Shown: piece after piece, positions 1,022 to 20,920 of the stretch
Numbering within the stretch: position 1 is the stretch's first letter
How the letters are laid out: the number at the start of each line of letters is the position of its first letter
Source: an uncultured Coxiellaceae bacterium
Lineage (GTDB): Bacteria; Pseudomonadota; Gammaproteobacteria; Coxiellales; Coxiellaceae
Reading direction: 5' to 3'
Assembly (NCBI GenBank): GCA_947084935.1
Contig: CAMTUH010000010.1
Span: forward strand, 4,538-68,537
DNA length: 64,000 nucleotides
Notes under the pieces: generated by a model
Databases searched by the model: none
What the model saw: the letters and a program-made list of their open reading frames with translations, nothing else
What the model was told of the DNA's origin: nothing
Position numbers and translations under genes: made by a program

Positions 1022-1519
1022 ATGATGCACGGAAAGGCATCCCTGAAATACTCTATCCACTGGCTGTTCGAGCAATATAAAAATATTGTTCGACTTTATG
1101 CCCGGAAATACCCCTTTAAAATAATTGATATCGAGCAACACGATGGTGGAGGTGAAACTCAATTTGTCATTAAAATTGAGTATCGAATTTCAACCATAAA
1201 AAAAACTGCCCATGAGTTGGTCGCACACCCGGATTTTTTAGAAGGATTTTCAAGGAGCGATGTCCAAATCATTACTTATCACTTTTTCATCAATAATCAA
1301 AAACCTCAATATGAGTTAATCGGAGAAAAGCGAGCGGTAAACGGCACAGCCCTATTGCTTAAGGATAATAAGTGTTCCGTGACGCACGTCAAAAATGTCT
1401 CTGATTTTAGAGGCATCAAAAAATATATTTCAAAACTGAACCCAAAATCTGCATTTAGAATTGGTTTTTTAATGGGGACAAATTCAAAACGAAAATATCA
1501 TGCTAAAACCTCGCGCTGA
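1022..1519 (+). CDS. hypothetical protein, 165 aa, no recognised domain
   Basis: Only long ORF between rpoS and the next gene. Weak SD. 3' end overlaps the next ORF by 20 nt. No motif recognised. Confidence 0.4.
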   Translation: MMHGKASLKYSIHWLFEQYKNIVRLYARKYPFKIIDIEQHDGGGETQFVIKIEYRISTIKKTAHELVAHPDFLEGFSRSDVQIITYHFFINNQKPQYELIGEKRAVNGTALLLKDNKCSVTHVKNVSDFRGIKKYISKLNPKSAFRIGFLMGTNSKRKYHAKTSR

Positions 1520-2234
1520 ATATATACAATCCAATTATGTGATAGTTTTCGCAATGCTGTATTGTATGGCGCTTGTCATTCCGGTAGTGCTCGCATACCG
1601 ACCAGTGGCATTCGGCTTTTTTTCTGCAATACCTGGCGGCGCTCTTATTTTTCCTTCAACCTATTTATTCGGTGATATTATTAGCGAGGTATACGGCTAT
1701 AAGATAGCGAGGCAAATACTGTGGTGTTCCATTGGCGCGGAAATTTTATTTGCGCTTGGGATAACAGCAGTAATATATTCTCCATTTCCCAAAGGATGGC
1801 AGCAATATCACGAATACGTTGATGTTCTTGGGCATTCTTTACGGTTTGTAATGGCCAGCATCTTAGGGACAACCATAAGCGAATTCGTAAATATCTATAT
1901 TATTAGTAAGTCTAAAATTTATTATAAAGGTAGGCATTTTTGGCTAAGAAGCCTATTTTCAAGTGCGACGGGAGAAATAATTTTAACGATTATCGTTTAC
2001 TCAATCACATTTATGGGTATTTTTTCATTTATGGAAGTTATAAGGCTGATGATAAACGGGTATCTGTACAAGGTTGCTTTTTCAACGATAGGTGTCATTC
2101 CGGTAGTATTAATCACCACTTATCTTAAGAAAAAAGAAAATATAGATGTTTACGATCACAGTACCAATTTTAATCCTTTTATATTCGCATTGGAAAATTC
2201 TCACTTAAAGTCTGCTCCTAAATCGCCTATTTGA
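1500..2234 (+). CDS. yhhQ: queuosine-precursor transporter family membrane protein (YhhQ/COG1738-like)
   Basis: Polytopic membrane protein with the family-typical segment FPSTYLFGDIISEVYGYKIARQILW. About 6 predicted TM helices. Size (244 aa) fits. Confidence 0.65.
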   Translation: MLKPRAEYIQSNYVIVFAMLYCMALVIPVVLAYRPVAFGFFSAIPGGALIFPSTYLFGDIISEVYGYKIARQILWCSIGAEILFALGITAVIYSPFPKGWQQYHEYVDVLGHSLRFVMASILGTTISEFVNIYIISKSKIYYKGRHFWLRSLFSSATGEIILTIIVYSITFMGIFSFMEVIRLMINGYLYKVAFSTIGVIPVVLITTYLKKKENIDVYDHSTNFNPFIFALENSHLKSAPKSPI

Positions 2235-3065
2235 GGAGTCAAGGTTACTTTGATTTGTTGGAAAAAATTTCTGGGCATATATTTCTAATATATTAAACGT
2301 CATAAATACACTACCGTCCTCACCAGCAGGGCTTCGTCTTAAATAGGCCTCGCCAATCGACTCCATATACTCGTCTCTTTTATCTTTTGGCACGCAATTA
2401 ACGTGCGGCAACCAGGATTTTACAAAATTTAGTAAGGTAGCAATGTCGCGAAATTTATATGTAATTGGCTTTGATTGGATGCTGAGTACTTCAAAGCCCG
2501 CTTTAACGAGCAGTTTCTTGTATTGAGTTGGGGTGTAGAAAGTACGGGGATTCACAAAGTCGTTAAAGTACTCAGACCACTGATCGGATGAAACGGACTC
2601 ATCAACGATAGACCACAACGGTTCATGACGCATTCCAAAAGTTAAGATTAATTTTCCAGTGTCTTTAAGAATCGACTGTATTCTCGACAGAGCAAGCAGT
2701 TGCTCTTGTGGACTTAACCAATGTAGCGCATTGGCGGAAAAGACCCAATCCACTCTTTTAGGAAGGGTAAGGTTCTTTGCATCTGCAGTAAAAAACGTAA
2801 TATTTGGATATTGTGCAGCAGGATAGGCTTTTTTCGCAAACTCGATTGCTTTTACAGAAATGTCAAACGCATAAACTTTCCCTACGTATTTGGAAAGATA
2901 AACAGAAATAGCTCCAGTGCCACAACCCATATCAACAAGGATATCATCGGTTTTGAATTGCGCTTGAAATTGATCAATAAGCTCTTGAGCAGTGGCTATT
3001 TGTGGCTGGGAGTGTTCACTATATTCATGTGGGTTATTGCTGCCTCGTTCGGTTCTCATAGTCAC
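2205..3065 (-). CDS. class I SAM-dependent methyltransferase
   Basis: SAM-binding motif I LVDMGCGTGAISVYL followed by the acidic loop VYAFDIS. 286 aa. Start is 4 nt downstream of the stop of the repressor gene, so the two are probably co-transcribed. Confidence 0.75.
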   Translation of the reverse strand: MTMRTERGSNNPHEYSEHSQPQIATAQELIDQFQAQFKTDDILVDMGCGTGAISVYLSKYVGKVYAFDISVKAIEFAKKAYPAAQYPNITFFTADAKNLTLPKRVDWVFSANALHWLSPQEQLLALSRIQSILKDTGKLILTFGMRHEPLWSIVDESVSSDQWSEYFNDFVNPRTFYTPTQYKKLLVKAGFEVLSIQSKPITYKFRDIATLLNFVKSWLPHVNCVPKDKRDEYMESIGEAYLRRSPAGEDGSVFMTFNILEIYAQKFFPTNQSNLDSSNRRFRSRL

Positions 3066-3068: not shown

Positions 3069-3716
3069 TCAGTCGACAAGATTAACAATGGTTTGAACGA
3101 CAACACCAATGATTCTGTCTTTTTCTCCCAGTTGTTGAGATATTTCAGCTTGACCTGGGGTGACAAAAAACCGAATATCATCATCGAAAACAATTTCTTT
3201 TAAATTAACAAATTTTTGACCCTTTAGTGCAACGATAACAAAGTCTCCATTTCCGGGTTCTACTTCGGGATCAACAATAATAATTGATCCCTTTTGAAAT
3301 TGGGGCTCCATGCTGGCTGTATTTATATTTAATGCAAAAGCATGTTTACTTGTAACGTGCTCGGTGAGCACCCGCTTAGCTTCTCTTTTTTTGCTAAAAA
3401 ATTCTTCTGGGTTATAAGCTTCATGCCAATTCAGTGCTGGAACAGAGTTGTCGGTTGCGGTAGCACGGTATTTTCCCAGGTCATCTTCTCTGAGCGGTAT
3501 CTCACCAATTAACTGCCCTACGGGGATAGAAAAAAAATTTGCAATAATACTTAAAGAATCAAGAGTTGGGTTGGGATTCTTTTCTTTTATTAATCTGTTG
3601 ATGACCGATTTGGAAATACCCGTCTTGCGAGAAAGCTCGCGCTCGCTTAATGCCGCTTTGCGCATCAGTAAAGAAAGTATGTTGCCAATTTTGTTTCCCA
3701 ATCCAGTGCCCCCCAA
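3069..3716 (-). CDS. LexA/CI-like repressor (XRE-type HTH plus S24 peptidase domain)
   Basis: N-terminal HTH LSERELSRKTGISKSVINRLIKE. C-terminal S24 signature with the catalytic-Ser context TASMEPQF and a downstream GDFVIVALKGQK segment. Start codon uncertain (TTG at 3716 or 3701). Confidence 0.75.
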   Translation of the reverse strand: MGGTGLGNKIGNILSLLMRKAALSERELSRKTGISKSVINRLIKEKNPNPTLDSLSIIANFFSIPVGQLIGEIPLREDDLGKYRATATDNSVPALNWHEAYNPEEFFSKKREAKRVLTEHVTSKHAFALNINTASMEPQFQKGSIIIVDPEVEPGNGDFVIVALKGQKFVNLKEIVFDDDIRFFVTPGQAEISQQLGEKDRIIGVVVQTIVNLVD

Positions 3717-3723
3717 CGCTGTC

Positions 3724-3779
3724 GGACTTTAAAAAAACCAATTATAGGTATTGACTCTTTTAAAGTCCATCGGTACCAT
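3724..3779 (+). promoter_or_regulatory. sigma-70-like promoter (TTGACT-17-TACCAT) overlapped by an 11-bp perfect inverted repeat; candidate operator
   Basis: GGACTTTAAAA at 3724..3734 and TTTTAAAGTCC at 3758..3768. -35 TTGACT at 3751..3756 and -10 TACCAT at 3774..3779. Lies in the divergent region between the repressor gene and the 110-aa ORF. Confidence 0.4.
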
Positions 3780-3826
3780 TGTTTACAGCCTCTTAGCTTA
3801 TTGGATTTTATTAAGGAGTAACACAA

Positions 3827-4159
3827 ATGTCTCTATCGATTGGAAATACTGTTTCCCCACCCCCCTTTCTGAATAGTGAAGCACTGCAAACTTCCTTGGA
3901 GCCTGATCCCGTCGAGCCAGATTACTACATTCGCAGTCTCGAGCGGTATGGGATTATCTGCTATAAGCAACTTACTGATCCAGCCCAGTGTTTTGTCTTT
4001 GCTTGGCAAATTGCAGAAAATCCTCGGTTATTGGCTCGATTTGACGAGCGCGATCGGCACTTTATTGAGTCTTCGGCAGCGTATGAGCGAAAGGACTCCT
4101 GGTACCGGAAGGCAGGGCTGCAATTACGGCAGCGGGGTTTTGAAGCATTCACGGAATGA
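3827..4159 (+). CDS. conserved hypothetical protein, 110 aa; paralog A of the ORF at 20997..21326
   Basis: Good SD (AAGGAG). Roughly two-thirds amino-acid identity by eye to the second copy (PVEPDYY, GIICYKQ, FAWQI, RFDERDRHFI, ERKDSWY, QLRQ.GFE.FTE). Many differences between the copies are synonymous third-position changes, which indicates real coding sequence. Confidence 0.65.
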   Translation: MSLSIGNTVSPPPFLNSEALQTSLEPDPVEPDYYIRSLERYGIICYKQLTDPAQCFVFAWQIAENPRLLARFDERDRHFIESSAAYERKDSWYRKAGLQLRQRGFEAFTE

Positions 4160-4223
4160 AAGTGTATTTACATTTTATGAATAGAATACTATTATTTGTA
4201 TATACGTCTTTTGGGGGTGTACG

Positions 4224-4472
4224 GTGAAACAAGCAATGAATTTTAGACTCAACAGCCGGACGGTTGCGCGTTTGTCGACGCTCTCTAAAGAGCTGCATTT
4301 GTCGAAGACAGACGTTTTGGAAAAAGCCATTGATTTTTATGCCAAAAAGCAAATGCGTTCACAATCGGATTTAATGAAATTCGCCGGAATTCTCAGCGAA
4401 GAAGACGCGAATAAGATGCAAAGTGCAATCCGAGAATCCAGGCATAATAAAGATGAGGACGTGGAATTGTGA
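4224..4472 (+). CDS. ribbon-helix-helix (CopG/VapB-like) antitoxin
   Basis: N-terminal MNFRLNSRTVARLSTLSKELHLSKTDVLEKAIDFY fits an RHH fold. Overlaps the downstream PIN toxin gene by 4 nt. Start may instead be the ATG at 4236. Confidence 0.7.
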   Translation: MKQAMNFRLNSRTVARLSTLSKELHLSKTDVLEKAIDFYAKKQMRSQSDLMKFAGILSEEDANKMQSAIRESRHNKDEDVEL

Positions 4473-4873
4473 AATACGTCTTGGATACGGATATTTTAAT
4501 TTATTTTTTGAAAGGCAAGGAAAGCGTCGTCACTAAAATAACAGAAATTCCTGTGGAGGATTTAAGCACGACGATCGTTAATCACACCGAATTACTGTTT
4601 GGTGCGCTAAACTCCACGCATAAAAAAGAAAACTTGATTAAGGTTACGGGATTATTGGGTAAATTAGAAATTTTACCCTTTTGTGAAAAGTCTTCTTACC
4701 GATTTGCAGAGAAAAAAGCCGAATTAAAGAAATCGGGAAGAATGCTTGCGGATCTTGATCTCATGATCGCAAGCATTTGTCTCCAAACCAATGCACTGTT
4801 GGTTACCAACAACACAAGGCATTTTGACCGAATTGCGGGCTTAACAGTAGAGAATTGGGCGCATGATGAATAA
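4469..4873 (+). CDS. vapC: PIN-domain toxin VapC
   Basis: PIN acidic residues in YVLDTDILIYFL, ..HTELLFG.., DLDLMIASICL and LLVTNNTRHFDRI. 134 aa. GTG start overlaps the antitoxin stop. Confidence 0.85.
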   Translation: MKYVLDTDILIYFLKGKESVVTKITEIPVEDLSTTIVNHTELLFGALNSTHKKENLIKVTGLLGKLEILPFCEKSSYRFAEKKAELKKSGRMLADLDLMIASICLQTNALLVTNNTRHFDRIAGLTVENWAHDE

Positions 4874-4971
4874 ACTAAATGGACGCTTTTAGGACCAGTC
4901 AGGGTCGCCACGATATAATCATTCGCAAAAATGGCCGGAGTGAGGCTAAGGCCAAGAAGACAAGTGATTAA

Positions 4972-5380
4972 GCAACCATTCTTCTGTAAATTAGCTAGAC
5001 GCTGTTTCAGGAGAGAGTCCCGTGAGTGCTCCCGGCACTCCTCAGCTTGCGCCGCTTCGGCATAACGGGGCCGCGAAATTCGACTTCCTGGTCTCAGATT
5101 CGCTCTCTGGGACATCCCTGTCCCAGAGACCCCGTTATGCCCGCGCGGCTCAGCTTGCGGGTGCTGGAGGAGCCCCCACGGGACTCTCTCCTGAAACAGC
5201 ATCAGCGGGATTTGCTGAATGGGCTGGAGGGGAGGTGTTATGAAACGCAAATAAAGCGCAGTCGGGCGGAGCCCGACGAGCCATTGCGTTTCATAACACC
5301 TCCCCTCCAAGCCCCTTGATGTCTGCTCGCGAAAAATACCTCACCAACAGCTTCAGCGGAATTTACAGAAGAATGGTTGC
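4972..5380. mobile_element. MITE-like nested palindromic element, about 409 bp, GC-rich
   Basis: Perfect 21-bp terminal inverted repeat GCAACCATTCTTCTGTAAATT (4972..4992 / 5360..5380). Internal perfect 24-bp IR (5001..5024 / 5177..5200) and 26-bp IR (5225..5250 / 5284..5309), plus smaller hairpins (5104..5127, 5261..5277). No coding capacity that I trust. Confidence 0.55.
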
Positions 5381-5457
5381 GTAATCATGTAAAACACATT
5401 GTGACGCACGCTGAATACAATAAGCTTTGTAAAAAGTATATGAGAGAAGGAGAGTAG
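5362..5457 (+). pseudogene. higB: 3' relic of a HigB-family toxin gene
   Basis: Translates to ..WLRNHVKHIVTHAEYNKLCKKYMREGE*. This resembles the HigB C-terminus (V.I..I.THAEYD). Its stop is 1 nt before the higA ATG. The frame hits a stop upstream at 5317 and there is no room for the N-terminal half. Confidence 0.45.
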
Positions 5458-5458
5458 T

Positions 5459-5872
5459 ATGGGTTTTGCATTGATAAAAAGAAAAGCGCATTCTTTATTT
5501 GAAGAAGCTCGTTTCATTGGTCATATCAATAATAACGAAGAGTACGAAAAAGCACTTACTTTAATGGATGAGCTCATCGAAGACTATGACTATAATCGCG
5601 TGTTAATTGAGATTCTTTCTGCCAGTATCGAGCGTTGGGAAAATGAGTCTAAAGAATTTAAAGACTTTAATGCGCGCATCGAATCGGTAGATTCAGGACG
5701 AGCCCTGTTAGAAATAATCATGGAGCAATATGAATTGGGCGTGGCTGACTTTCCTGAAGTGGGTTCTAAATCGTTGGTTTCAAAAATTTTAAATAATAAA
5801 CGTCGATTGACCTTAGGTCATATCCAAGCCCTGAGTAAACGATTTGGGATCGACCCCGGATTGTTTCTTTGA
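5459..5872 (+). CDS. higA: HigA-family HTH antitoxin / transcriptional regulator
   Basis: Collinear by eye with E. coli HigA: NEEYEKALTLMDELI, IERWE..SKEFKDFNA, IMEQYELGVADFPEVGSKSLVSKILNNKRRLTLGHIQALSKRFGIDPGLF. Good SD (GGAG). Confidence 0.8.
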   Translation: MGFALIKRKAHSLFEEARFIGHINNNEEYEKALTLMDELIEDYDYNRVLIEILSASIERWENESKEFKDFNARIESVDSGRALLEIIMEQYELGVADFPEVGSKSLVSKILNNKRRLTLGHIQALSKRFGIDPGLFL

Positions 5873-8293
5873 TTTTTCTGGAAGGTGGCCGTTGATGAGG
5901 TTTTTATTATTTGAGGTATCGGTCTTCGACAAGGTTAACCACGTTTTTAGAATAGAATCGGGGCTCAGAGACATGCTGTTGATGCCTTGTTCCAGGAGCC
6001 ATTGAGCAAAATCGATGTGATCCGATGGCCCCTGTCCGCAAATACCCACGTATTTATTCAGTCGCTTGCATGTTTGAATGGTTTGACTCAACAATGCTTT
6101 AACGGCGCTGTTCCGCTCATCGAATAAATGTGCAATTAATTCGGAATCGCGGTCGAGGCCCAGCGCTAATTGAGTCAGATCATTTGAACCAATGGAGAAC
6201 CCATCAAAATATTCCAGAAATTCTTCCGCTAAAATAACGTTGGAAGGGATTTCGCACATCATATAGAATTTCAGGCCATTTCCGCGCTTGAGCCCATGTT
6301 TTTCAGTCAGGGTGAGCAATTGCGTTGCCTCATTGACGGTACGAACAAACGGAAACATAATGTGTGTATTAATCAGTCCTTTTTCTTCACGAACGCGTCT
6401 CACCGCTTCACACTCGAGCGTGAAGCAGTCCCGAAAATTTCCCGAAGTATAACGCGAAGCTCCGCGATAACCGAGCATGGGATTTTCTTCGTGTGCTTCG
6501 TAAATAGCGCCGCCAATTAAATTCGCGTACTCATTCGATTTAAAATCGGAAAATCGTACAATGATGGGCTTGGGATAAAATGCAGCGGCAATGGTCGCAA
6601 TGCCTTCGGCCAGTTTTTCAATGTAAAATTCAATCGGATTTTTGTAGGCCGAAATTATTTTAGCGATTTTATTTTTTAGCGGCGGGGGCAATTTTTTATA
6701 ATCCAAAAGTGCGCGGGGGTGTATGCCGATCATGTTGTTAATAATAAATTCCAATCGCGCGAGTCCAACACCACCGTTGGGAATAAATTGGTAGACAAAT
6801 GCTTGTTCGGGGTTGGCGAGATTCATGCACAATTCGACGGGTAACGCGGGCAGTTGATCAATGGATGTTTTATCGATGCGGTATTTGGCATTACCTTTAT
6901 AAACGTAACCGGTTTCGCCTTCCGCACAGGAAACCGTAATTTTTTGGCCGTCTTTAATTACTCGGGTTGCATTACTGCAACCTACGACCGCAGGAATTCC
7001 CATTTCGCGCGCAATAATTGCCGCATGGCACGTGCGTCCACCCCGATTGGTGATGATGGCTGCGGCGCGTTTCATGATCGGCTCCCAATCGGGGTCCGTC
7101 ATGTCGGTTACTAAAATTTCGCCGGGCTTCAGTCGATCTTTTTGTTTCGGACTTTTAATTAAACGAGCAACGCCGTGCGTGATTTTTTGTCCGATGCTGC
7201 GTCCTTGGGTGAGGATGTGCCCTTTTTCTTCTAAACAATAGTGTTCGAGAACACGATGAGTTTCATTCGATTGTACGGTTTCCGGTCGTGCTTGCAGAAT
7301 ATAAATTTCATTGTCAATGCCGTCTTTCGCCCACTCGATATCCATCGGCTTTCCATAATGGGATTCGATTAACAGCGCTTGATTCGCCAGGACTAAAATG
7401 TCGTCGTCGCTGATACAAAAGCGTTGTTGATCCGCGATGGGAACGGATTGATTGACGGTAGCAGTTTTGTTTTTTTTCGATTTTTTTGCGTAGACAGTTT
7501 TTATCGATTTCGATCCCAGCTTTCGGCTGATGATGGATTTTTTTTCTTCGCGCAACGTGGGTTTGTGAACATAAAATTCATCGGGATTATTCAGACCCTG
7601 AACAATAGTTTCGCCAAGACCGTATGCGGCAGTAATAAAAATCACTTGATCAAATCCCGATTCCGTGTCGAGGGTAAACATCACGCCACTGGCGGCTAAA
7701 TCACTGCGCACCATTTTTTGTATGCCAGCGGAAATAGCCACTTGTGTGTGGTCGAATCCGTTGTGAATGCGGTATGAAATGGCACGTTCGGTAAACAGCG
7801 AAGAGAAAACTTTTTTGATTGCGGTGAGAAGGTCTTTTTCACCGCGGATATTTAAATACGTTTCTTGTTGTCCGGCGAATGAGGCCTGCGGCAAATCTTC
7901 CGCCGTGGCCGATGAGCGAACGGCAACCGACTGGGACGGTTTTAACTGAAGTTGCCGATATGCTCTTTTGATTTCTGAAACGAGTTCGTCTGGCAGCTCG
8001 GCGTTATCAATCCAGCGACGAATGTCCACGCTGGCTTTTTTCAGCTGGGTCATATTATTGATGTCTAACTGGAATAATGCTTTAGAGATTTTTTTATCTA
8101 GGTTATTTTTTTCTAGGAAGTCATAATAAGCGAAGGCGGTGGTAGCGAATCCCCCGGGAACCTTGATCCCCAGAGGGGAGAGCCTGTTGATCATCTCTCC
8201 GAGGGAGGCGTTTTTACCGCCGACGTCGGGGAGGTGCTCTAGGGTAACCTCGCGAAGGTCCAGTATATAAGTCATGTTTTGATCCATTTTCAT
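5813..8293 (-). CDS. ppsA: phosphoenolpyruvate synthase
   Basis: 826 aa. N-terminal GGKNASLGEM, the phosphohistidine swivel segment TNRGGRTCHAAIIAREMGIPAVVG, and the C-terminal PEP-utilising domain GFSIGSNDLTQL. C-terminus is about 35 aa longer than the usual end after ..TWL.L.. Confidence 0.95.
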   Translation of the reverse strand: MKMDQNMTYILDLREVTLEHLPDVGGKNASLGEMINRLSPLGIKVPGGFATTAFAYYDFLEKNNLDKKISKALFQLDINNMTQLKKASVDIRRWIDNAELPDELVSEIKRAYRQLQLKPSQSVAVRSSATAEDLPQASFAGQQETYLNIRGEKDLLTAIKKVFSSLFTERAISYRIHNGFDHTQVAISAGIQKMVRSDLAASGVMFTLDTESGFDQVIFITAAYGLGETIVQGLNNPDEFYVHKPTLREEKKSIISRKLGSKSIKTVYAKKSKKNKTATVNQSVPIADQQRFCISDDDILVLANQALLIESHYGKPMDIEWAKDGIDNEIYILQARPETVQSNETHRVLEHYCLEEKGHILTQGRSIGQKITHGVARLIKSPKQKDRLKPGEILVTDMTDPDWEPIMKRAAAIITNRGGRTCHAAIIAREMGIPAVVGCSNATRVIKDGQKITVSCAEGETGYVYKGNAKYRIDKTSIDQLPALPVELCMNLANPEQAFVYQFIPNGGVGLARLEFIINNMIGIHPRALLDYKKLPPPLKNKIAKIISAYKNPIEFYIEKLAEGIATIAAAFYPKPIIVRFSDFKSNEYANLIGGAIYEAHEENPMLGYRGASRYTSGNFRDCFTLECEAVRRVREEKGLINTHIMFPFVRTVNEATQLLTLTEKHGLKRGNGLKFYMMCEIPSNVILAEEFLEYFDGFSIGSNDLTQLALGLDRDSELIAHLFDERNSAVKALLSQTIQTCKRLNKYVGICGQGPSDHIDFAQWLLEQGINSMSLSPDSILKTWLTLSKTDTSNNKNLINGHLPEKSKKQSGVDPKSFTQGLDMT

Positions 8294-8365
8294 TGAACAA
8301 TAAAACTATAGCAGAGGATTGTTCAAAGATTGATATGATACTTTGGGGTGTTATGACTCAGGCAC

Positions 8366-8399
8366 GTAGCCTTGATGGAGCGCTAGCGAAATCAAGGAA
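8366..8399 (+). repeat. REP-like palindromic unit, copy A (GTAGCCTTGATGGAGC..GCGAAATCAAGGAA)
   Basis: Same termini as the inverted copy at 21362..21416. Forms a CCTTGAT/ATCAAGG hairpin. Embedded in a GC-rich structured intergenic segment (about 8355..8470) upstream of ppsA. Confidence 0.6.
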
Positions 8400-8469
8400 C
8401 TTAATTCCCGGGTTACGCTCCCCGCAAGGCGAGGACAGGCCACGAAGCGTGGCTCCACCCAGGCTACGG

Positions 8470-9063
8470 TTACTTTTTCCGCTTCTGCAGCTCCGACAGG
8501 CTTTGCGCCTTGGCAATGGCGTCTGAGATATCCATGTGCAATTGGCGACTGATCTGAGAGGTCGTGAAAATACCACGCAACATTTGCTTATCGTCGCCGT
8601 TGTCGTCATTGACCACCAAGGCGTAGTGGGTGCGCAAATTTTTCAACGTAACAACAATGTTGCCAACTTTAGCGTGTTCCAAGGTTTTCATATCAAAGGC
8701 GACGATTTTATTCAGGGGCGTCATTAACATTTTTACGAGAATTTGCGAGCGTTCAACGCGTCGTTCTTGAATAATTTTTATGGGCAACTCTCCCAAAATA
8801 TCTTCCGATCCAATAACACCGACCACGTTTCCCGCTTTTTCTTGGACCAACAACAAATGAACGCCGTGTACTTTCATTTCATCGAGGGCGTTATCCATGG
8901 GTTCATTGGGGCCGATGGTGCGCGGGCGTACGTGCGCAAAATCGGACATCACGGCAAACGCCGGATCATCGAGGTGGACGATTTCGAGCAACTTTCGCGA
9001 GCGCAAAAACGCGTTTTCGGGGGATAATTGTACGGTGCGCAGAGATTCGTAACGTGCCATGGC
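8470..9063 (-). CDS. CBS-domain protein
   Basis: Tandem CBS-like segments (MSDFAHVRPRTIGPNEPMDNALDEMKVHGVHLLLV..; LMTPLNKIVAFDMKTLEHAKVGNIVVTLKNLRTHYALVV). The ATG at 9063 (MARYESL..) is preferred over the longer ORF-track start at 9135. Confidence 0.65.
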   Translation of the reverse strand, partial: AMARYESLRTVQLSPENAFLRSRKLLEIVHLDDPAFAVMSDFAHVRPRTIGPNEPMDNALDEMKVHGVHLLLVQEKAGNVVGVIGSEDILGELPIKIIQERRVERSQILVKMLMTPLNKIVAFDMKTLEHAKVGNIVVTLKNLRTHYALVVNDDNGDDKQMLRGIFTTSQISRQLHMDISDAIAKAQSLSELQKRKK

Positions 9064-9172
9064 ACACATTGTCGAATATCTGTGGGTGGAGTGCAAGACG
9101 TAAGTTGTGCTAATATTTAAAAGAGTTTCGCACAAAGTGCGAAACTCCTGGAGATTTTAACGAGGATCCCAC

Positions 9173-9358
9173 ATGACTCAAACCGAAGGGTGTACGAAGC
9201 GACGTTACGTCGTCAGTCAAGAAGACTTGCCCCTGTGTTGCCCCATGCCAAAGTACCGATTGTGGGACGCACATCCGCGCGTGTATTTGCCGATTGAGCA
9301 AGAGGGGCACGTCGTATGCCCTTATTGTGACGCAGAATATGTATTGGAAGAGCGCTAA
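9173..9358 (+). CDS. small zinc-finger protein (zf-CHCC-like)
   Basis: 61 aa with the pattern LCCP....HPRVYL......VVCPYCDAEY, typical of the NDUFS6-like zinc-finger family. Lies 3 nt upstream of waaF. Confidence 0.55.
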   Translation: MTQTEGCTKRRYVVSQEDLPLCCPMPKYRLWDAHPRVYLPIEQEGHVVCPYCDAEYVLEER

Positions 9359-9361
9359 TCG

Positions 9362-10390
9362 ATGGAACGGATATTAATTGTGGGTCCCGCGTGGGTGGGG
9401 GACATGATGATGGCGCAAACGCTGTTTAAACTGATAAAACAGCGTAATCCCAACTCTGTGTTGGACGTGCTCGCTCCTTCCTGGACGAAACCTCTGTTGG
9501 ATCGCATGCCCGAGGTGAATGAATCCCTCGATTTACCGTTTGCACACGGGGAATTGCGCGTGCGTGATCGATATCGATTGGGCCGATTGTTGCGTTCGCG
9601 AGGTTACGATCAAGCTTTTGTGTTGCCGAACTCTTATAAATCCGCGCTTATTCCCTTTTGGGCGAATATTCCTCGGCGAACGGGCTGGGTGGGTGAATTG
9701 CGTTACGGATTACTCAACGATATCCGACATTTAGATGAAGCACGGTTTCCATTAATGATTCAGCGCTTTATGGCATTGGCGCTATTACCGAATGAAAATT
9801 TGCCGGAAGTTTATCCGCGTCCTGAATTAACGCTTTCTGCGGAAAGTGTTGCCAGCACGTTGCAACGATTTCGTTTAATGACATCTGATGAACCGATATT
9901 GGCGCTGTGTCCCGGTGCTGAGTTTGGTTCTTCGAAACGATGGCCCCCAGAATATTTTGCGGAAATTGCTAAAACGAAACTGTCGGAAGGCTGGCGCGTT
10001 TGGTTGCTGGGATCAGCGAAAGATAAAGTGATTACCGATCAAATCGATGCATTGACCGATCACCGTACGCTTAATTTAGCGGGCAACACGTCGCTGACGG
10101 AAGTCATCGATTTATTATCGTTAGCGAATTTCGTCGTGACCAATGATTCGGGATTGATGCACGTTGCTGCGGCGTTAAATCGTCCGACGGTGGTGATGTA
10201 TGGATCGACTTCACCGAAATTTACACCGCCTTTATCAGAACGCGTGCAAATCCTGCGGTTGGATTTGCCGTGCAGCCCTTGTTTTCAGCGTGAATGCCCG
10301 CTCCGACATTTTAATTGTATGATCGAGTTAAAACCGGATTTGGTTTTATCGGCGATGGATGCGATTATTGCTGAACCTATTGTTGCGTAA
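9362..10390 (+). CDS. waaF: ADP-heptose:LPS heptosyltransferase II
   Basis: Near-collinear by eye with E. coli RfaF: ILIVGPAWVGDMMMAQ, RMPEVNE, VLPNSYKSALIPFWANIPRRTGWVGELRYGLLND, NDSGLMHVAAAL. Confidence 0.88.
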   Translation: MERILIVGPAWVGDMMMAQTLFKLIKQRNPNSVLDVLAPSWTKPLLDRMPEVNESLDLPFAHGELRVRDRYRLGRLLRSRGYDQAFVLPNSYKSALIPFWANIPRRTGWVGELRYGLLNDIRHLDEARFPLMIQRFMALALLPNENLPEVYPRPELTLSAESVASTLQRFRLMTSDEPILALCPGAEFGSSKRWPPEYFAEIAKTKLSEGWRVWLLGSAKDKVITDQIDALTDHRTLNLAGNTSLTEVIDLLSLANFVVTNDSGLMHVAAALNRPTVVMYGSTSPKFTPPLSERVQILRLDLPCSPCFQRECPLRHFNCMIELKPDLVLSAMDAIIAEPIVA

Positions 10391-10402
10391 TACATCCATG
10401 TA

Positions 10403-10435
10403 AGGTTGGGCTTCATTTCATTTAGCCCAACCTTG
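10403..10435. repeat. hairpin AAGGTTGGGCT-N11-AGCCCAACCTT (REP-like; possible waaF terminator)
   Basis: 11-bp perfect stem directly after the waaF stop. No T-run follows. The AGGTTGGGC core recurs at 19984 and in the palindrome at 60599..60665. Confidence 0.5.
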
Positions 10436-10504
10436 CTCAGTTACGCACACGGGTACACTACTGAGAAAAAAAGAGTTAGCATCTCGTTAAACTAAAGGAG
10501 ATGC

Positions 10505-11344
10505 ATGATGAGTCAAAATTTAACACCCAAAAACCATATTGTTGTATTCAACAGCAACAAAATTAGGCGTGTATTTCATGGGAACATGTGGTGGTTTGTT
10601 ATTACCGATGTCATTGCAGCATTAACCGATTCTACTCAACCCACCGGATATCTTAAGGATATGCGCCGCCGAGACCCAGAGCTAAACAAAGGATGGGGGC
10701 AAATTGCCACCCCCCTTTTGGTAGAAACTGCTGGTGGCCCTCAGAAGCTTAATTGCGCAAATACAGAAGGGATTTTTCGCATTATTCAATCTATTCCGTC
10801 TCCAAAGGCAGAGCCTTTTAAGCGCTGGTTAGCCAAAATTGGTTACGAACGAGTGCAAGAAATAGAGGACCCAGAGTTGGCTTCCCAGCGTGCTCGCGAT
10901 CTTTATAAAGCTAAAGGTTACACCAAGAGTTGGATTGAAAAGAGAATGCGCGGAATTCAGATTCGCGAAGAATTAACAAATGAATGGAAACACCGTGCTG
11001 TCGGTGGTGAGAATGAATACGCCATTTTAACCGCAGAAATCTCTAAAGCTACCTTTGGTCTCACTCCTGCCGAGTATAAAAAACATAAGGGACTCAAGCG
11101 TGAAAATTTACGAGATCATATGACGGATTTAGAGTTGATTTTTTCTATGTTGGGGGAGGCTTCTACGACCGAAATTACTCGTGAAAACGAAGCCATAGGA
11201 TTCAAAGAAAATCGTACAGCCGCTCGTGCAGGCGGTGAGGTAGCCGGTAACGCTCGCAAAGATTTAGAATCCAAAACCCGTAAAAAAGTGGTGGGCAAGA
11301 AAAATTATTTGGCGAAGAAAAATAAATTAATTTCGAGAAATTAA
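10505..11344 (+). CDS. Bro-N domain protein (DinD / phage antirepressor-like)
   Basis: N-terminal Bro-N pattern (VVFNSNKIRRVFHGNMWWFVITDVIAALT..). KAEPFKRWLAKIGYERVQEIEDPE resembles DinD-type proteins. Strong SD (AAGGAG). Confidence 0.65.
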   Translation: MMSQNLTPKNHIVVFNSNKIRRVFHGNMWWFVITDVIAALTDSTQPTGYLKDMRRRDPELNKGWGQIATPLLVETAGGPQKLNCANTEGIFRIIQSIPSPKAEPFKRWLAKIGYERVQEIEDPELASQRARDLYKAKGYTKSWIEKRMRGIQIREELTNEWKHRAVGGENEYAILTAEISKATFGLTPAEYKKHKGLKRENLRDHMTDLELIFSMLGEASTTEITRENEAIGFKENRTAARAGGEVAGNARKDLESKTRKKVVGKKNYLAKKNKLISRN

Positions 11345-11465
11345 AACAGAATAATTCTTAACCGCTTGATTTTTGTGCTCGTTGGTGCTACAAAAGAAGC
11401 GTGACGGAGGAGTGCACTAACACCCCTCCGCCACTAACCACAATTAACTGACATAGGAGTTAATC

Positions 11466-11720
11466 ATGGCTGACGATAGTCTAAATGATGATGCTGGCGA
11501 TCGCCAGCACGACAAAAAAGTTACGTATTCCCTCACTTTTAAACGCGACCAGTGGTTTGCCTTTTGGCAATTGCTGACCGTGGGCTGCATGATGTCGGAT
11601 TATTTACTGGAAAACCCCGTTTTTGCAGCAATTGCAAGGCGGTGGAACCGGTTATCCGATCAATTGGCGCACGCCCTCGACAGCGGGGAAGTGAGCTACG
11701 AAAAAGTAACGACTTCTTAG
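11466..11720 (+). CDS. hypothetical protein, 84 aa
   Basis: ATG preceded by AGGAG. No recognised domain. An imperfect hairpin follows the stop. Confidence 0.45.
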   Translation: MADDSLNDDAGDRQHDKKVTYSLTFKRDQWFAFWQLLTVGCMMSDYLLENPVFAAIARRWNRLSDQLAHALDSGEVSYEKVTTS

Positions 11721-11796
11721 CCCGTGGTGGACCACTCGCGGATTGAGTGCCACCACACGGTTGTGCGCGCATTCGGTTCGCGAGGGTTTTGAATTG

Positions 11797-12258
11797 TTAC
11801 CAACGATGGTAAGCCGGATGTCCCGATGGCACAGCAACAAATTTACCTAAGCAGGTATCACAGAGTTTTTCATCGGCAAACAGTTTTCCCGAAATGATCG
11901 CTGCATTGCCGTTAATTTCTTCACACACCGCTTCTAAAGTCAGTGGCGTGTTCATGGGCGTTGGTCGTAATAATTTAATGGTGTATTCTGCCGTGACGGT
12001 GCACGGTGGGTGATCCAATTTTTGGTCTTGCATCAAATACCAGCAAGCCGCCCAATTGCAGTGGCAATCCAATAAGGTGCCGATGATTCCTCCATTTAAC
12101 ACGTTGGGAAATGCGTGGTGGTGGGGTTTTGGCCGATAGTGAGCGATCACGCGGTCGCCTTCTGCGTAACTTTCTAATTGCAGACCCTGTGCGTTTGCTG
12201 GGCCACACCCATAACAAATGCTTTGTTTAGCGTATTTGTGCTGTAAAGATTTTTTCAT
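11797..12258 (-). CDS. hotdog-fold (PaaI-type) thioesterase
   Basis: N-terminal CYGCGPANAQGLQL motif and the central NGGIIGTLLD segment typical of 4HBT/PaaI thioesterases. The ATG at 12258 (MKKSLQ..) is preferred over the ORF-track start at 12312. Confidence 0.55.
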   Translation of the reverse strand: MKKSLQHKYAKQSICYGCGPANAQGLQLESYAEGDRVIAHYRPKPHHHAFPNVLNGGIIGTLLDCHCNWAACWYLMQDQKLDHPPCTVTAEYTIKLLRPTPMNTPLTLEAVCEEINGNAAIISGKLFADEKLCDTCLGKFVAVPSGHPAYHRW

Positions 12259-13480
12259 ATTTAGGAAGTCGCAGAGGCAAGGTTGAAAATCCGAGTCCGG
12301 AAAATAAGGCAAACAGATGTAATTCGGTTGTGTCGCTCAGCCACGCATTGGCCAGGCATCCTAATACCATCCCAATGAGTAAAATTCGTGTGAGATAACG
12401 CCACTCGTCGTCTAAGTAAAGGCTGTTTTTCCACTGAAAAAGAAGCAATAAAATAATATACGCGATTCCGACGAGCCCTAATTCGACACCCACGTTAATA
12501 AAGCTGTTGTACGCGGTTCTTAAGATGTCGGTCGGTTGTGTTATTTCTCGTGGGAGGTTGGCATAAGCGGCAGAGAAACTTCCCGTACCATGACCCAAAA
12601 TGGGTTTTTGCTTAATCAGCTGAAATGCGTTTTTAATGGATTGAATGCGAATACCCATGGAAGTGAGTGCGTGGCTTTGTTGGTATTTTTGGGTTTCATT
12701 GATCGTGCTGATCATACGGTGCTTAAATTCGGTCGAGAAAGAAAAAGCCAACGTGCTGAGAGCCACCAGCGCAATGAATGCACCGAGAATGCCCCGCCAT
12801 CCGAAGTAAAGGCCCGAGGTATACAGAAGCAAAGCGGCGAAGATAACGTAACCGGATCGGCCATCACTAACGAACAATACGTTGTACACCATCAATAAAA
12901 TGAGTATGCCGTAAAACCAACGAAGTCGACGGGCATTCAGCCATCGATACATCAGAATAAAGGAAGCATAAGCCATGAGAAAATTTTGAATGATGTGGTC
13001 TTTAAACACGCTTCCCTGATCAAAACGCGTGTGGAATAAATCGTGTTTGAAATAATATTTCACGTAGGACAGGACGAGAGTAATCATCATCGCCAACAAA
13101 AATGCATCAATGGCATAACGCCGCCATCTTTGCCAGTGTTCACCGTGCAAAGAGATCATCAAGAAAGCTGCCGCTAGAAAGCAGCTCGTCCTGAAGAGGC
13201 CGCGCCACAGCTCGTGAGCGGGGGCAATTGAATAAGTCACCCCGATGAGGGACAACACAAAGAAGCCGATAAAAAGGAGCGCCACGGGATGCGCAATGAG
13301 GCGTCGCCACAGGGGCGCTTCTTTCACAGGGACAAAAAGGCTAAGCAGGGCGACCACGGGAAAAAGGGTGTCTGTCGCGCTAGTTGAGAGGGGTAGGGCA
13401 AAAGCGCAGACGACGAGCAGGCTCCCTACAACCCATTGAAAAATTCTCGGCAGCCACCAAGGATTTAGCGCATCGTGCAT
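12227..13480 (-). CDS. O-antigen ligase family membrane protein (WaaL-like)
   Basis: 417 aa with about 10-12 TM helices and a periplasmic loop (..HGTGSFSAAY..) in the Wzy_C position. Lies within the LPS core cluster. Confidence 0.6.
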   Translation of the reverse strand: MHDALNPWWLPRIFQWVVGSLLVVCAFALPLSTSATDTLFPVVALLSLFVPVKEAPLWRRLIAHPVALLFIGFFVLSLIGVTYSIAPAHELWRGLFRTSCFLAAAFLMISLHGEHWQRWRRYAIDAFLLAMMITLVLSYVKYYFKHDLFHTRFDQGSVFKDHIIQNFLMAYASFILMYRWLNARRLRWFYGILILLMVYNVLFVSDGRSGYVIFAALLLYTSGLYFGWRGILGAFIALVALSTLAFSFSTEFKHRMISTINETQKYQQSHALTSMGIRIQSIKNAFQLIKQKPILGHGTGSFSAAYANLPREITQPTDILRTAYNSFINVGVELGLVGIAYIILLLLFQWKNSLYLDDEWRYLTRILLIGMVLGCLANAWLSDTTELHLFALFSGLGFSTLPLRLPKYEKIFTAQIR

Positions 13481-13516
13481 GATTTTCTGTCTGAATCACA
13501 TTAGAATAAGCGACCA

Positions 13517-14644
13517 GTGTATCATGATGAATTTGAGATTTACACGATGGAATTACACCTTCTCGAGCCCACGTTAGCGGATCAAACGGGTCACTGCCAT
13601 GGTTACGTTCAGAGCCTGATTGAAGCCAATCGAGCCCAAGACCTCGCACTGCACGTGTGGTTGGATCGGCGCGGACGTCATTTGTATTCGGGATTGCCTA
13701 TACACAGCCACGGGTATTTTTCTCGGCGTTTGCGGCAGTGGCAAAAATTATGGTGCCTGCGATCGCTGATCAAATCACAACAGAATATTTTTATCCCGAC
13801 GGCGGGCCGAACGGATTTAGTTTATTTAAATTGGCTGCTTAAAGGAAAAAAATATTCAGGAAAAATATTTTTGCATTTTCATCAATTTAAAGCGACGTCA
13901 AAAAAAATGGCGCTATTAAAACGAATAGCCGCTGCTCATCCTCAATTCATTATTATGACGCCTACCGAAGGGTTGTCGGTAATTTTTAAAGAGAGTGGAT
14001 TCCTAAATTGTGAATGGGTGCCGTGCCCGGGTTACGCCCCGCGCTCTCATCCCGACAATAAAAATCCTCAATTTGGAAAAATTATTTTCGCGGGAGCCGC
14101 GCGTTCCGATAAAGGATTTCCCGAAGTAGTGCGTTTTGTGGAATACATGACGCAACGCTTGCCATCAGTTCGTTTTGAAATACAAATATCGCCGCCGCAT
14201 TCAGGACGATACGACAAAGCCAGTGAAAGCGCTTTGTCGCGATTAAAAAACGTAACTCACCCCAACTTAGTTTTGCACGAGAGAACTCTGGGCCGGGGTG
14301 CTTATCAGGCCTTGTTTACTAACGCTATTTGCTTATTGACCTACGATCCCGACAGCTATCGGCACAAGTTCAGCGGAGTTGCACTCGATGCTTTTTATGC
14401 AGGGTGTCCGGTTATTTCCGTGGTGAACACCTGGACCGGAGAGACGACGAAGCGTTTCGAGGCAGGAATTGCCCTCACCCATCGATCTCCAGAAAATATG
14501 TTCATCGCCCTGCAAACCATTCGTAAAAATTACGCCCACTATCAAAAAAATGCAAAACACGCCAGTACGATTTTGCAACAAGAACACAGTCCGCAGAATA
14601 CCCTGCGCACGATAAAAAAATATCTGGATCAGACGAATGAGTAA
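13517..14644 (+). CDS. putative glycosyltransferase (GT-B fold)
   Basis: Location in the LPS cluster and a C-terminal GT1-like region (FAGAARSDKGFPEVV...YDPDSYRHKFSGVALDAFYAGCPVI). Start uncertain (GTG at 13517 or ATG at 13547). Overlaps the next gene by 8 nt. Confidence 0.5.
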   Translation: MYHDEFEIYTMELHLLEPTLADQTGHCHGYVQSLIEANRAQDLALHVWLDRRGRHLYSGLPIHSHGYFSRRLRQWQKLWCLRSLIKSQQNIFIPTAGRTDLVYLNWLLKGKKYSGKIFLHFHQFKATSKKMALLKRIAAAHPQFIIMTPTEGLSVIFKESGFLNCEWVPCPGYAPRSHPDNKNPQFGKIIFAGAARSDKGFPEVVRFVEYMTQRLPSVRFEIQISPPHSGRYDKASESALSRLKNVTHPNLVLHERTLGRGAYQALFTNAICLLTYDPDSYRHKFSGVALDAFYAGCPVISVVNTWTGETTKRFEAGIALTHRSPENMFIALQTIRKNYAHYQKNAKHASTILQQEHSPQNTLRTIKKYLDQTNE

Positions 14645-15452
14645 AATATCGGTTTACATTATCGCCTTTAATCAAGCCGATAAAATAGAGTCGGCGATTA
14701 ATAGCGTGTTGTGGGCAGACGAAGTGGTGGTGGTGGATTCGCGCAGTACCGATGGCACATCGGAGTTGGCTGAAAAATTAGGTGCGCGTGTAGTGCACGT
14801 TCCTTTTTGCGGGTTTGGTGAGTTGCGAAATCGGGCGATTGAAGTGTGTCGGTACGAGTGGATTTTCAGTTTGGATTCGGACGAGCGCTGCACACCCGAA
14901 GTACGGGATGAAATTTTATCGATCGTTCATTCGAAAGATGCGCTCGACGTTTATTTAATTCCGCGGAAAAATTATTTTATGGGCCGTTGGATCAAACATT
15001 CAGGTTGGTTTCCTGATTATCGGCAACCTCAGTTATTTCGAAAAGGTTGCTTGTCTTACGCGCCCGACATTGTTCACGAAAATTATAATTGTCACAGCAA
15101 CAAGCCAACGGGTTACTTAATTAATATGATTTGGCAGGTTCCCTTTCAGAATTTATCGGAAATGATGGGTAAAGCGAATCGGTATTCCAGCTTGGGTGTG
15201 GGGCGACTGGAAAAAAAATACAAAACGGCTTCCATGGGAAGGGCGGTGATACACACGCTGTGGACGTTTTTTAAAGTGTACGTATTAAGACGAGGTTTTT
15301 TGGATGGATGGCCGGGATTCGTGATTGCCGTGGGACACAGTTACGGTGCTTTTTACCGATACGCTAAATTTTACGAGAAAGAAAAACAATGGCCGAATCT
15401 ACCGGCGTTTACTATTTATAAAGACCGTGTGGAAGAAAAGGAAATTCGATGA
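14637..15452 (+). CDS. family 2 glycosyltransferase
   Basis: ISVYIIAFNQADKIESAINSV..ADEVVVVDSRSTDGT...FSLDSDE (DxD) is a typical GT2 LPS core transferase pattern. Confidence 0.8.
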   Translation: MSKISVYIIAFNQADKIESAINSVLWADEVVVVDSRSTDGTSELAEKLGARVVHVPFCGFGELRNRAIEVCRYEWIFSLDSDERCTPEVRDEILSIVHSKDALDVYLIPRKNYFMGRWIKHSGWFPDYRQPQLFRKGCLSYAPDIVHENYNCHSNKPTGYLINMIWQVPFQNLSEMMGKANRYSSLGVGRLEKKYKTASMGRAVIHTLWTFFKVYVLRRGFLDGWPGFVIAVGHSYGAFYRYAKFYEKEKQWPNLPAFTIYKDRVEEKEIR

Positions 15453-16909: not shown

Positions 16910-16930
16910 TGTCGACGACAAAGGTGAAAA

Positions 16931-18367: not shown

Positions 18368-19323
18368 TTATCGTTACCGGCGGCGCGGGATTTATTGGCA
18401 GCAATATCGTTCACGCATTAAATGCGCGTGGGCGGACGGATATTTTAGTCGTCGATGATTTAACCAACGGAAAGAAATACCGTAATCTCATCGGCGCACA
18501 ACTTTTTGATTATCAGGATTACGAAGATTTTTTAGCGGACGTTATTGCCGATAAAATTTTTGCTAAGAAAGTTGATGCAATTTTTCACGAAGGAGCGTGT
18601 TCCGCAACGACCGAGTGGGATGGTCGGCATATGATGCGCGCTAATTATGATTACTCGAAACATCTGTTTCACTACAGTGTGCAGCATTGCATTCCGTTCG
18701 TTTACGCGTCCAGCGCTGCCGTTTATGGGATGAATAGTCAATTTGAAGAATCGTCTGTTTTGGAAGCGCCGCTGAATGTGTATGGTTATTCAAAATGGAT
18801 TTTCGATCAGTACGTTTTGCGGCATTTGCCCGAGCTGCGTTCGCCGGTAGTTGGGTTGCGTTATTTTAATGTGTACGGACCGCGCGAGCAGCACAAAGGA
18901 TCGATGGCCAGTGTGGCCCTGCATGCCATGAGTCAATTGCGGGAGTCTGGTGTTGTGCGCTTGTTTGAGGGATGCGATGGCTATGCTCATGGAGAACAGG
19001 TACGCGATTTTATTTCGGTGGAAGACGTCGTAAAAGTAAATCTGTGGTTCATGGAAAATCCCGGTAAAACGGGGGTATTTAACGTAGGAACGGGTAAAGC
19101 CCGTCCTTTTAATGACGTCGCCAGAAATTTAATTTCGTTACACGGATCCGGAAAAATCGAATATATTCCCTTTCCCGAAAAATTACGCGGTGCCTATCAA
19201 AGCTTCACACAAGCAAACGTCACGCGATTACGTGACGCCGGTTACCACACATCTTTTCTCACGCTCGAAGAAGGATTGGAGCGATATTGGCAGTGGGTTA
19301 ATGCCACACCCATCAAGGTTTAA
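18364..19323 (+). CDS. hldD: ADP-L-glycero-D-manno-heptose 6-epimerase
   Basis: MIIVTGGAGFIGSNIV Rossmann motif, YGYSK catalytic motif, 319 aa. 4-nt overlap with hldE. Confidence 0.92.
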   Translation: MIIVTGGAGFIGSNIVHALNARGRTDILVVDDLTNGKKYRNLIGAQLFDYQDYEDFLADVIADKIFAKKVDAIFHEGACSATTEWDGRHMMRANYDYSKHLFHYSVQHCIPFVYASSAAVYGMNSQFEESSVLEAPLNVYGYSKWIFDQYVLRHLPELRSPVVGLRYFNVYGPREQHKGSMASVALHAMSQLRESGVVRLFEGCDGYAHGEQVRDFISVEDVVKVNLWFMENPGKTGVFNVGTGKARPFNDVARNLISLHGSGKIEYIPFPEKLRGAYQSFTQANVTRLRDAGYHTSFLTLEEGLERYWQWVNATPIKV

Positions 19324-19413
19324 TTCGCACAAACCCATTTATGGAAAAGGTTACTGTATTGAATACGGGATGAAAATTGGAGCAAACTGAGTATAATCCA
19401 AACAGGACAGATA

Positions 19414-19986: not shown

Positions 19987-20029
19987 GTTGGGCTATATGG
20001 TGCAATAAGTTAAGACTATAAAATGTGGT

Positions 20030-20893: not shown

Positions 20894-20920
20894 CCGAAGT
20901 ACACACGGTCTTTACAAGCA

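Follow-up and report, generated by a model that had tools for sequence, protein, structure and literature searches.

A rare orphan protein family best described by its transcription factor partners, found twice beside VapBC pairs in an uncultured Coxiellaceae bacterium

When a small gene of no recognized family stands between a transcription factor gene and a toxin-antitoxin (TA) pair, and does so twice in one stretch of DNA, to which of its neighbors does it belong? The question arises in a 64,000-nt stretch (hereafter, the window; overall GC content 0.456) from an uncultured Coxiellaceae bacterium (assembly GCA_947084935.1, contig CAMTUH010000010.1, positions 4,538 to 68,537). A first-pass annotation had described two modules, each with a regulator, a protein of about 110 aa and a VapBC pair, and had proposed either a conserved three-component unit or a regulatory cassette of integrated elements. 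We use X as the name of the orphan small-protein family, X1 for the copy in module 1 and X2 for the copy in module 2. The open reading frames (ORFs) and the Pfam and NCBIfam matches bore out both layouts, with a different regulator and a different antitoxin fold in module 2 (Table 1). Judged by sequence comparison, X is best described as a previously undescribed orphan family of extreme rarity, and its conserved partner is a transcription factor and not a TA pair. The new part is X; there is nothing out of the ordinary about the regulators or the VapBC pairs.

We compared 11 loci carrying X, namely the two window modules and the loci L006, L008, L009, L010, L013, L014, L015, L016 and L022. A regulator gene adjoined X in 8 of the 11; with L014 and L015 being orthologous, the independent count was 7 of 10. 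At five loci (module 1, L006, L008, L014 and L015) a divergent regulator with a helix-turn-helix (HTH) and an S24-like domain was located 5' of X, while a LuxR/GerE-type regulator was found next to X at three loci (module 2, L013 and L022). The LuxR gene of module 2 lies upstream of X and in the same direction; that of L013 is divergent, and its product is 25% identical to the window LuxR over 241 aa. An upstream fragment in locus L018, taken by eye for a LuxR C-terminus, was not confirmed by Pfam and was left uncounted.

The gene content downstream of X was informative in six of the outside loci (L006, L008, L013, L014, L015 and L022), and in none of the six did X adjoin a PIN or VapB gene; VapBC was found 3' of X in the window genome alone. 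Thus, of the two kinds of neighbors that the first-pass annotation had proposed to survey around homologs, the regulators were recovered and the TA genes were not. The 3' neighbor of X was secG in L006, a major facilitator superfamily (MFS) transporter gene in L008 and the row rpmH-rnpA-yidC in both L014 and L015. In L013 (6001..6853) and L022 (2..910) X was followed by a 66-69-aa ORF and then by a stand-alone 84-aa GerE protein, with 59% identity between the two small ORFs and 64% between the two GerE proteins. This set is a second recurring gene set with X, present on two unrelated contigs and absent from the window.

The outside loci lie among housekeeping genes (rpmH-rnpA, secG-tpiA or dnaKJ), and no integrase, transposase or conjugation genes were found there. 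The association with transcription factors is family-wide, and the proposed cassette of integrated elements is therefore not general. Between L014 and L015 the identity of X was 44%, below that of the regulator (70%), RnpA (74%) and YidC (68%); X is thus retained and yet evolves fast.

The paralogy of the two window copies, noted earlier by eye, was evident. X1 and X2 were 67% identical over 101 aa (BLASTP E=2e-53), and all the sequence blocks quoted in the first-pass annotation are present. At the DNA level the identity was ~72% over 300 nt, and the copies form direct repeats at the protein level. Of the 94 nucleotide differences, 54 fell at third codon positions, and the NG86 estimates (dN=0.22, dS saturated, dN/dS ~0.08) agree with the purifying selection suggested before. 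The DNA similarity is confined to the ORF and ends at the ORF borders. Because VapC1 and VapC2 are only 31% identical and the antitoxin folds differ (ribbon-helix-helix, RHH, versus AbrB), what recurs is the X gene and the layout, not one duplicated block.

The VapBC pairs probably do not belong to the unit of X. Each pair consists of a PIN toxin with an overlapping gene for a DNA-binding antitoxin just upstream, as in type II systems. Each has a predicted promoter-like site of its own; promoters throughout this text are matches to the sigma-70-like consensus only. In module 2 this site is overlaid by a perfect palindrome, which is likely the VapB operator, and from these elements we would predict that vapBC is autoregulated from a promoter and an operator of its own. 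Among plasmids, VapC2 has its closest relative (62% identity) on Aquicella lusitana plasmid 3, where the vapB-vapC pair has the same operator palindrome, GTATATAC...GTATATAC, upstream, and neither X nor a LuxR gene in its upstream region. Since the Aquicella pair keeps the operator palindrome in the absence of X and LuxR, the vapBC cassette moves as a unit of its own.

Compared to canonical VapBC pairs of the tRNA(fMet)-endonuclease type, known from Shigella and Leptospira, the window pairs showed nothing unusual: the same PIN toxin, an overlapping RHH or AbrB antitoxin gene upstream, an upstream promoter-like site and, in module 2, a putative palindromic operator. VapC2 passed the NCBIfam equivalog cut-off; VapC1 scored 118.9 bits against the tRNA(fMet)-specific VapC model, under the cut-off of 140 bits. 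In the NNT(R/K)xF motif VapC1 has, by eye, a His where VapC2 has a Glu.

The rarity of X rests on HMMER, run exhaustively over 1.84 billion cluster representatives, by which 13 X clusters were found at E<=1e-3, most of them with 1-3 members. A separate search for homologous proteins recovered just 5 of the 14 family members and missed even the paralog, its index being incomplete for X. The two named clusters were both labelled 'Gammaproteobacteria bacterium'. That the family had gone unrecognized in the first-pass annotation is matched by the libraries. Pfam gave no match for X1 or X2, and even at E<=5 no Pfam family was matched by two or more of the 14 members; there was no match in NCBIfam, PHROGs or PADLOC. 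The best E-value was 0.18 in the sequence search of the PDB, and Foldseek with the model of X returned no neighbor (best E=2.3 in the PDB and E=0.44 in BFVD). Searches of 72,556 plasmids (tblastn, none at E<=1), 50,697 phage genomes and IMG/VR were empty or insignificant, and a scan of JGI metagenomes gave no match. The sole GTDB match, Limisphaerales locus L001, was not recovered by the family hidden Markov model (HMM) and is regarded as a chance match.

The AlphaFold model of X, made from a 14-sequence alignment, had a mean pLDDT (predicted local distance difference test score) of 86, with values >90 over residues 30-110. In the predicted fold a disordered N-terminus (residues 1-30) leads into three short strands, after which come a pair of short helices and a long helical hairpin; the conserved core, about residues 30-110, would form a compact beta-3/alpha domain of ~80 residues. 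Conserved positions are chiefly aromatic, hydrophobic or acidic (GIICYK, FAWQI, RFD..DR.FI, D.WY..AG). Within the family the isoelectric point (pI) ranges from 4.5 to 9.95 and the net charge varies widely. No transmembrane segment and no HTH were found in X, and it does not look like a DNA-binding protein. Because of the lack of a DNA-binding signature, the widely varying charge and the fast sequence evolution, X is most likely a protein-binding protein.

In one clade of X (P0003, P0015, P0016 and L022) we observed that the GIICYK strand is interrupted by an in-frame insertion of ~57 aa (~205..375 in L017; 2..415 in L022). The DNA of the insertion is palindromic, and its 28-nt end, GAGTTTCGCAC..GTGCGAAACTC, is a 96% match to an intergenic hairpin of the window at 9123..9150. 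By analogy with the Rickettsia palindromic elements, this looks like an in-frame insertion of a palindromic repeat.

How could the parts work together? We hold it to be an even call that each module is made of two independent units placed side by side, a regulator-coupled X and an autonomous VapBC. The first unit would be the transcription factor gene with X, the promoter of X being under the adjacent regulator, LvrR-like in module 1 and LuxR-type in module 2. In module 1 the repressor may act through the 19-nt inverted repeat that lies over both divergent promoters, and its self-cleavage is conceivable given the residues present at both catalytic alignment positions. Inactivation or activation of the regulator would then lead to the production of X, which would act by binding another protein, the adjacent regulator being one candidate target. 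The second unit would be an ordinary autonomous and autoregulated type II VapBC pair, presumably with an addiction role, with its own promoter and operator. Its place next to the first may come from both being small, horizontally acquired, low-GC islets of the kind that TA cassettes populate and stabilize. The regulator genes have a GC content of 0.35-0.40, compared to 0.456 for the window.

Several observations weigh against this picture of two independent units. The window holds exactly two X copies and two PIN genes, adjacent in both modules; by our estimate, with ~60 gene slots assumed, such adjacency would arise by random placement with a chance of ~6e-4. Chance is a poor explanation for the only two PIN genes in 64 kb each adjoining an X copy, and an appeal to shared islets softens the point without removing it. 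No terminator-like site was found between X and vapB in either module, therefore co-transcription by read-through is possible. The regulators next to X come from two unrelated families, and L009, L010 and L016 had no recognizable regulator. A motif common to the regions 5' of X was not found among 12 loci, which shared generic AT-rich 8-mers only. The relatives P0009, P0011, P0015 and P0016 are outside the set of loci, and the contigs of L017 and L018 are too short to inform on neighbors.

Table 1. Features of the two modules and of the genes next to module 1 (positions in the window)
Feature	Positions	Strand	Evidence and remarks
Vut_1/queuosine-precursor transporter	1500..2234	+	Pfam
Class I SAM (S-adenosylmethionine) methyltransferase	2205..3065	-	Pfam
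LvrR-like CI/LexA-type repressor, N-terminal XRE HTH and C-terminal S24	3069..3716	-	Pfam S24 E=1e-11, HTH_26 E=7.5e-9; HTH_3 also
Divergent control region, putative repressor operator	3724..3779	.	19-nt inverted repeat and two consensus promoters
X1, 110 aa	3827..4159	+	AAGGAG 8 nt 5' of ATG
Predicted vapBC1 sigma-70-like promoter, TTTACA-17-TATTAT	4167..4195	+	Consensus match, 10/12; within the 64-nt spacer 3' of X1
VapB1, ribbon-helix-helix antitoxin	4224..4472	+	Pfam VAPB_antitox E=3.7e-6, RHH_3
VapC1, PIN toxin	4469..4873	+	Pfam PIN E=1.3e-13; 4-nt overlap with vapB1
LuxR-type regulator, C-terminal GerE HTH	20030..20893	+	Pfam; GC 0.35
Promoter-like site 5' of X2, TTTACA-18-GATATT	20911..20940	+	Encloses palindrome CCGTATTTAATACGG (20921-20935)
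X2, 109 aa, paralog of X1 (P0002 in the family listing)	20997..21326	+	BLASTP
Structured 210-nt spacer between X2 and vapB2	21327..21536	+	RNA fold z = -2.66 versus shuffled controls; inverted repeats
Predicted vapBC2 promoter and palindrome	21495..21535	+	TTGCGA-17-TATACT (21495..21523); perfect 10+10 palindrome GTATATACTT/AAGTATATAC over the -10
VapB2, AbrB/MazE-fold antitoxin, 75-aa gene call	21555..21782	+	Pfam MazE_antitoxin; NCBIfam TA_anti_VapB 66.1 bits (cut-off 60)
VapC2, PIN toxin of the tRNA(fMet)-endonuclease VapC type	21782..22186	+	NCBIfam NF047863 157.8 bits, above the 140-bit cut-off; Pfam PIN E=4.6e-20

The divergent promoter noted in the first-pass annotation of module 1 was found again, as consensus matches together with an inverted repeat. 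The plus-strand site is TTGACT-17-TACCAT (3751..3779) and the minus-strand site is TGGACT-17-TATAAT (3769..3741). The arms of the repeat, at 3724-3742 and 3750-3768, span both of them, with an overlap of the plus-strand -35 (TTGACT at 3751). Exact occurrences of the half-site GGACTTTAAAA in the window were the two arms of the 3724..3768 repeat only. As to the start of the repressor gene, a conserved upstream block, 'L..LS.LM', argues for the long ORF over the 198-aa gene call.

Two S24/XRE regulators, each placed at the start of the transfer region of an L. pneumophila plasmid, are 34% and 31% identical to the repressor of module 1 over >95% of the length. The trio of regulator, class I SAM methyltransferase and Vut was also present on two conjugative plasmids of L. 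pneumophila, L011 (4001..6432) and L012 (3995..7009). From this gene content, Legionella transfer regions may begin with a conserved unit, functional or mobile, that is made up of the trio. The genes divergent from the regulator on L012 code for a 324-aa 'Vir protein', 157-aa and 67-aa proteins and CsrA, an order that fits the lvrRABC cassette (Wee et al. 2013, PMC3864950). The lvr resemblance suggested earlier is therefore sound for the repressor, the methyltransferase and Vut, and fails for X, which is not homologous to LvrA, LvrB or LvrC: the family HMM (hmmsearch --max) scored <=0.7 bits against the 324-, 157- and 67-aa proteins of L012, and no homology to CsrA/LvrC was found.

Besides the LvrR-type HTH-S24 repressor, module 1 shares with lvrRABC a divergent first gene, the methyltransferase and Vut genes on the 3' side of the repressor, and long inverted repeats in the intergenic region, comparable to those in the lvrR regions of Legionella plasmids. 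It differs in having X and vapBC in place of LvrA, LvrB and the CsrA-type LvrC, and in having no transfer genes; module 2 differs further in being headed by a LuxR-type regulator. No CsrA-like ORF was found in either module, where the genes after X are those of antitoxins and PIN toxins, and no tra or lgi genes were found adjacent to the modules, nor any transfer genes 3' of X. By its sequence, module 1 appears to reuse the regulatory head of LvrR type, joined to another first gene. A candidate link to the 180-aa protein between Vut and methyltransferase on L012 (11.7 bits) was rejected; the hhalign probability was 4.4%, and that protein is unlike a 165-aa ORF of the window. We found no paper linking lvrR with toxin-antitoxin genes.

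An unlikely alternative makes X an anti-regulator, which would inactivate or modulate the adjacent transcription factor and so form a double-negative bistable switch. Precedents are TraM, which acts on the LuxR-type TraR, and Tum, Ant and CarS, which act on CI-type repressors. Adjacency to a regulator is the conserved trait of X. A co-evolving binder would be expected to look like X, a small protein of variable pI that lacks a conserved basic surface and changes more quickly than the proteins encoded around it. The S24 domains of the partners bear on this as well. We aligned the window repressor with the regulators of L006, L008, L014, L015, L011 and L012, at 17-34% identity, where residue calls are uncertain. 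Only in the window repressor did both catalytic positions carry the residues expected there, Ser and Lys; L014 had the Ser, and most of the other partners and the plasmid regulators had G, D or T in place of the Ser and R or C in place of the Lys. Tentatively, most LvrR-like regulators may be non-self-cleaving, so that another way of inactivation would be needed; the low identity of the alignment counts against leaning on this. An anti-regulator would also have to target, with one fold, the unrelated XRE-S24 and LuxR/GerE families, and it would have nothing to act on at the three loci that lack a recognizable regulator. Pfam, in which TraM and the known antirepressors are covered, gave no match, and there was no structural neighbor.

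A distinctly unlikely explanation sees in the modules the degraded ends of former integrative or conjugative elements: module 1 would retain the lvrR-methyltransferase-Vut end of a transfer region of Legionella type, X would be leftover cargo tied to neither neighbor, and the TA pairs would once have stabilized the element, a role that TA genes typically have in mobile elements. The regulator-methyltransferase-Vut trio also heads the tra regions of L. pneumophila plasmids, both islets are low in GC, and palindromic repeat elements flank vapC1 and sit in the spacer of module 2. On the other hand, the modules have no integrase, transposase, relaxase or type IV secretion system (T4SS) gene, and neither direct repeats nor att sites were found around them; the window has a single tRNA gene, at 57 kb and thus not adjacent to either module, and Rfam found nothing else. 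X was absent from the plasmid, phage and IMG/VR sets, and its homologs lie next to housekeeping genes free of mobile-element genes. X is also under strong purifying selection, has a host-like GC content (0.48-0.49, unlike its regulators) and is kept at the same locus in L014 and L015, where no element remnants were seen.

The proposal of the first-pass annotation that X is a third partner of VapBC (a chaperone, trigger or extra regulator, with the transcription factor giving the input signal) is hard to credit. VapBC follows X in both window copies, and X, vapB and vapC share one orientation, with spacers of 64 and 210 nt and no terminator-like site between them. The association holds despite the change of antitoxin fold, and X could relate to the type of VapC, as both toxins match the tRNA(fMet)-VapC model best. 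In known three-component systems (omega-epsilon-zeta, PaaR-PaaA-ParE and the toxin-antitoxin-chaperone (TAC) systems of HigBA-SecB type) the third gene shares the operon and travels with the TA pair across genomes. The modules resemble these systems in having a third small gene upstream of the TA pair, in the same orientation and with a regulator nearby, but X is not found with the pair in other genomes (0 of 6 loci), and each pair has a promoter-like site of its own, in one case with an operator palindrome. The nearest plasmid homolog of vapBC2 keeps that operator and lacks X, a structured and repeat-bearing spacer parts X2 from vapB2, and X has no match in PADLOC or among TA families. The three-component idea thus fails the main comparative test, and to annotate the locus as a tripartite TA system would therefore be unwarranted.

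By analogy one may also think of other regulators with an adjacent gene of ~100 aa, such as PrtR/PrtN, AlpR/AlpA, the lexA-divergent division inhibitors of YneA type and TraR/TraM. In PrtR/PrtN-like pairs the small gene is often divergent and is the output or the modulator of the switch. X had no sequence or fold similarity to PrtR/PrtN, AlpR/AlpA, YneA or TraM (Pfam at E<=5 with 14 members; Foldseek). With very little confidence, X could be the founder of a class of small switch proteins in Legionellales-like Gammaproteobacteria, under LvrR or LuxR control, which would feed back on the regulator or, in the lineage of the window, couple the signal of the regulator to activation of the adjacent tRNA(fMet)-cleaving VapC. 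If so, a Dot/Icm-carrying bacterium would have a signal-gated circuit of three tiers: regulator, modulator and TA pair.

Should the preferred reading, a regulator-coupled X beside an autonomous VapBC, be true, one very rare orphan family would join the small genes wired to CI/LexA-like and LuxR-type regulators, and the LvrR-type head of Legionella conjugative elements would prove reusable on the chromosome with a different first gene. This would concern those who study regulation in Legionellales and small proteins, to whom it should come as no surprise. A modulation of the regulator or of VapBC by X would carry greater weight, because the signal-controlled triggering of VapC is poorly understood; the pairing of both X copies with VapBC in the window genome keeps that possibility alive.

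Module 1 is flanked by rpoS on one side and by ppsA on the other. Its context genes at 1500..3065 have a GC content of 0.37-0.40, compared to 0.456 for the whole window. VapB1 has an alternative start at 4236, which is that of the 78-aa gene call. Just 3' of vapC1 we observed a GC-rich region of ~420 bp (4965..5387, GC 0.52) with nested long inverted repeats, similar to a composite palindromic element or a miniature inverted-repeat transposable element (MITE). The 27 nt at its terminus are found again at 60398..60424, and another piece is present in L002, upstream of the window. Next comes a 137-aa protein (5459..5872, plus strand) with a C-terminal XRE HTH (Pfam HTH_3 E=2e-4), which we take by eye to be like a HigA-type antitoxin; no toxin gene was evident beside it, and its gene and ppsA share 60 nt at their 3' ends.

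Module 2 lies between hldD/LOG and secreted-protein genes. Its LuxR-type regulator is 33% identical to a regulator from a Legionella adelaidensis plasmid, and its N-terminal ~200 aa gave no family match. The palindrome CCGTATTTAATACGG enclosed by the promoter-like site 5' of X2 is ambiguous; it could be a regulator site or a weak terminator of the LuxR gene. The spacer between X2 and vapB2 has exact 16-nt and 14-nt matches at 8366..8399, in the intergenic region 5' of ppsA, which suggests, by sequence likeness, a short dispersed repeat family. The VapB2 ORF is open from 21537, with the start at 21555 being more likely, and the last base of vapB2, 21782, is the first base of vapC2.

X1 and X2 bracket a 17-kb segment (3827..21326) with ppsA and a cluster for lipopolysaccharide (LPS) core and O-antigen (glycosyltransferases, Wzy_C ligase, ManC, HldE and HldD); the bracketing is probably a coincidence. 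Inside the LPS cluster, between the modules, there is a Bro-N gene, with an N-terminal domain of the phage antirepressor type, along with small unassigned ORFs (10505..11344). A possible third copy of X at 35061..35249 (tblastn E=0.008), within a 256-aa ORF of the Dot/Icm region, was not recovered by the family HMM and is considered a chance match. The genes at 33867..38946 are, as we take them by eye, type IVB secretion genes of the Dot/Icm system, by which the organism would probably belong in or near the Legionellales: an IcmS-like gene of 112 aa, an IcmT-like gene of 85 aa, a DotM/IcmP-like gene and a DotL/IcmO-like gene.

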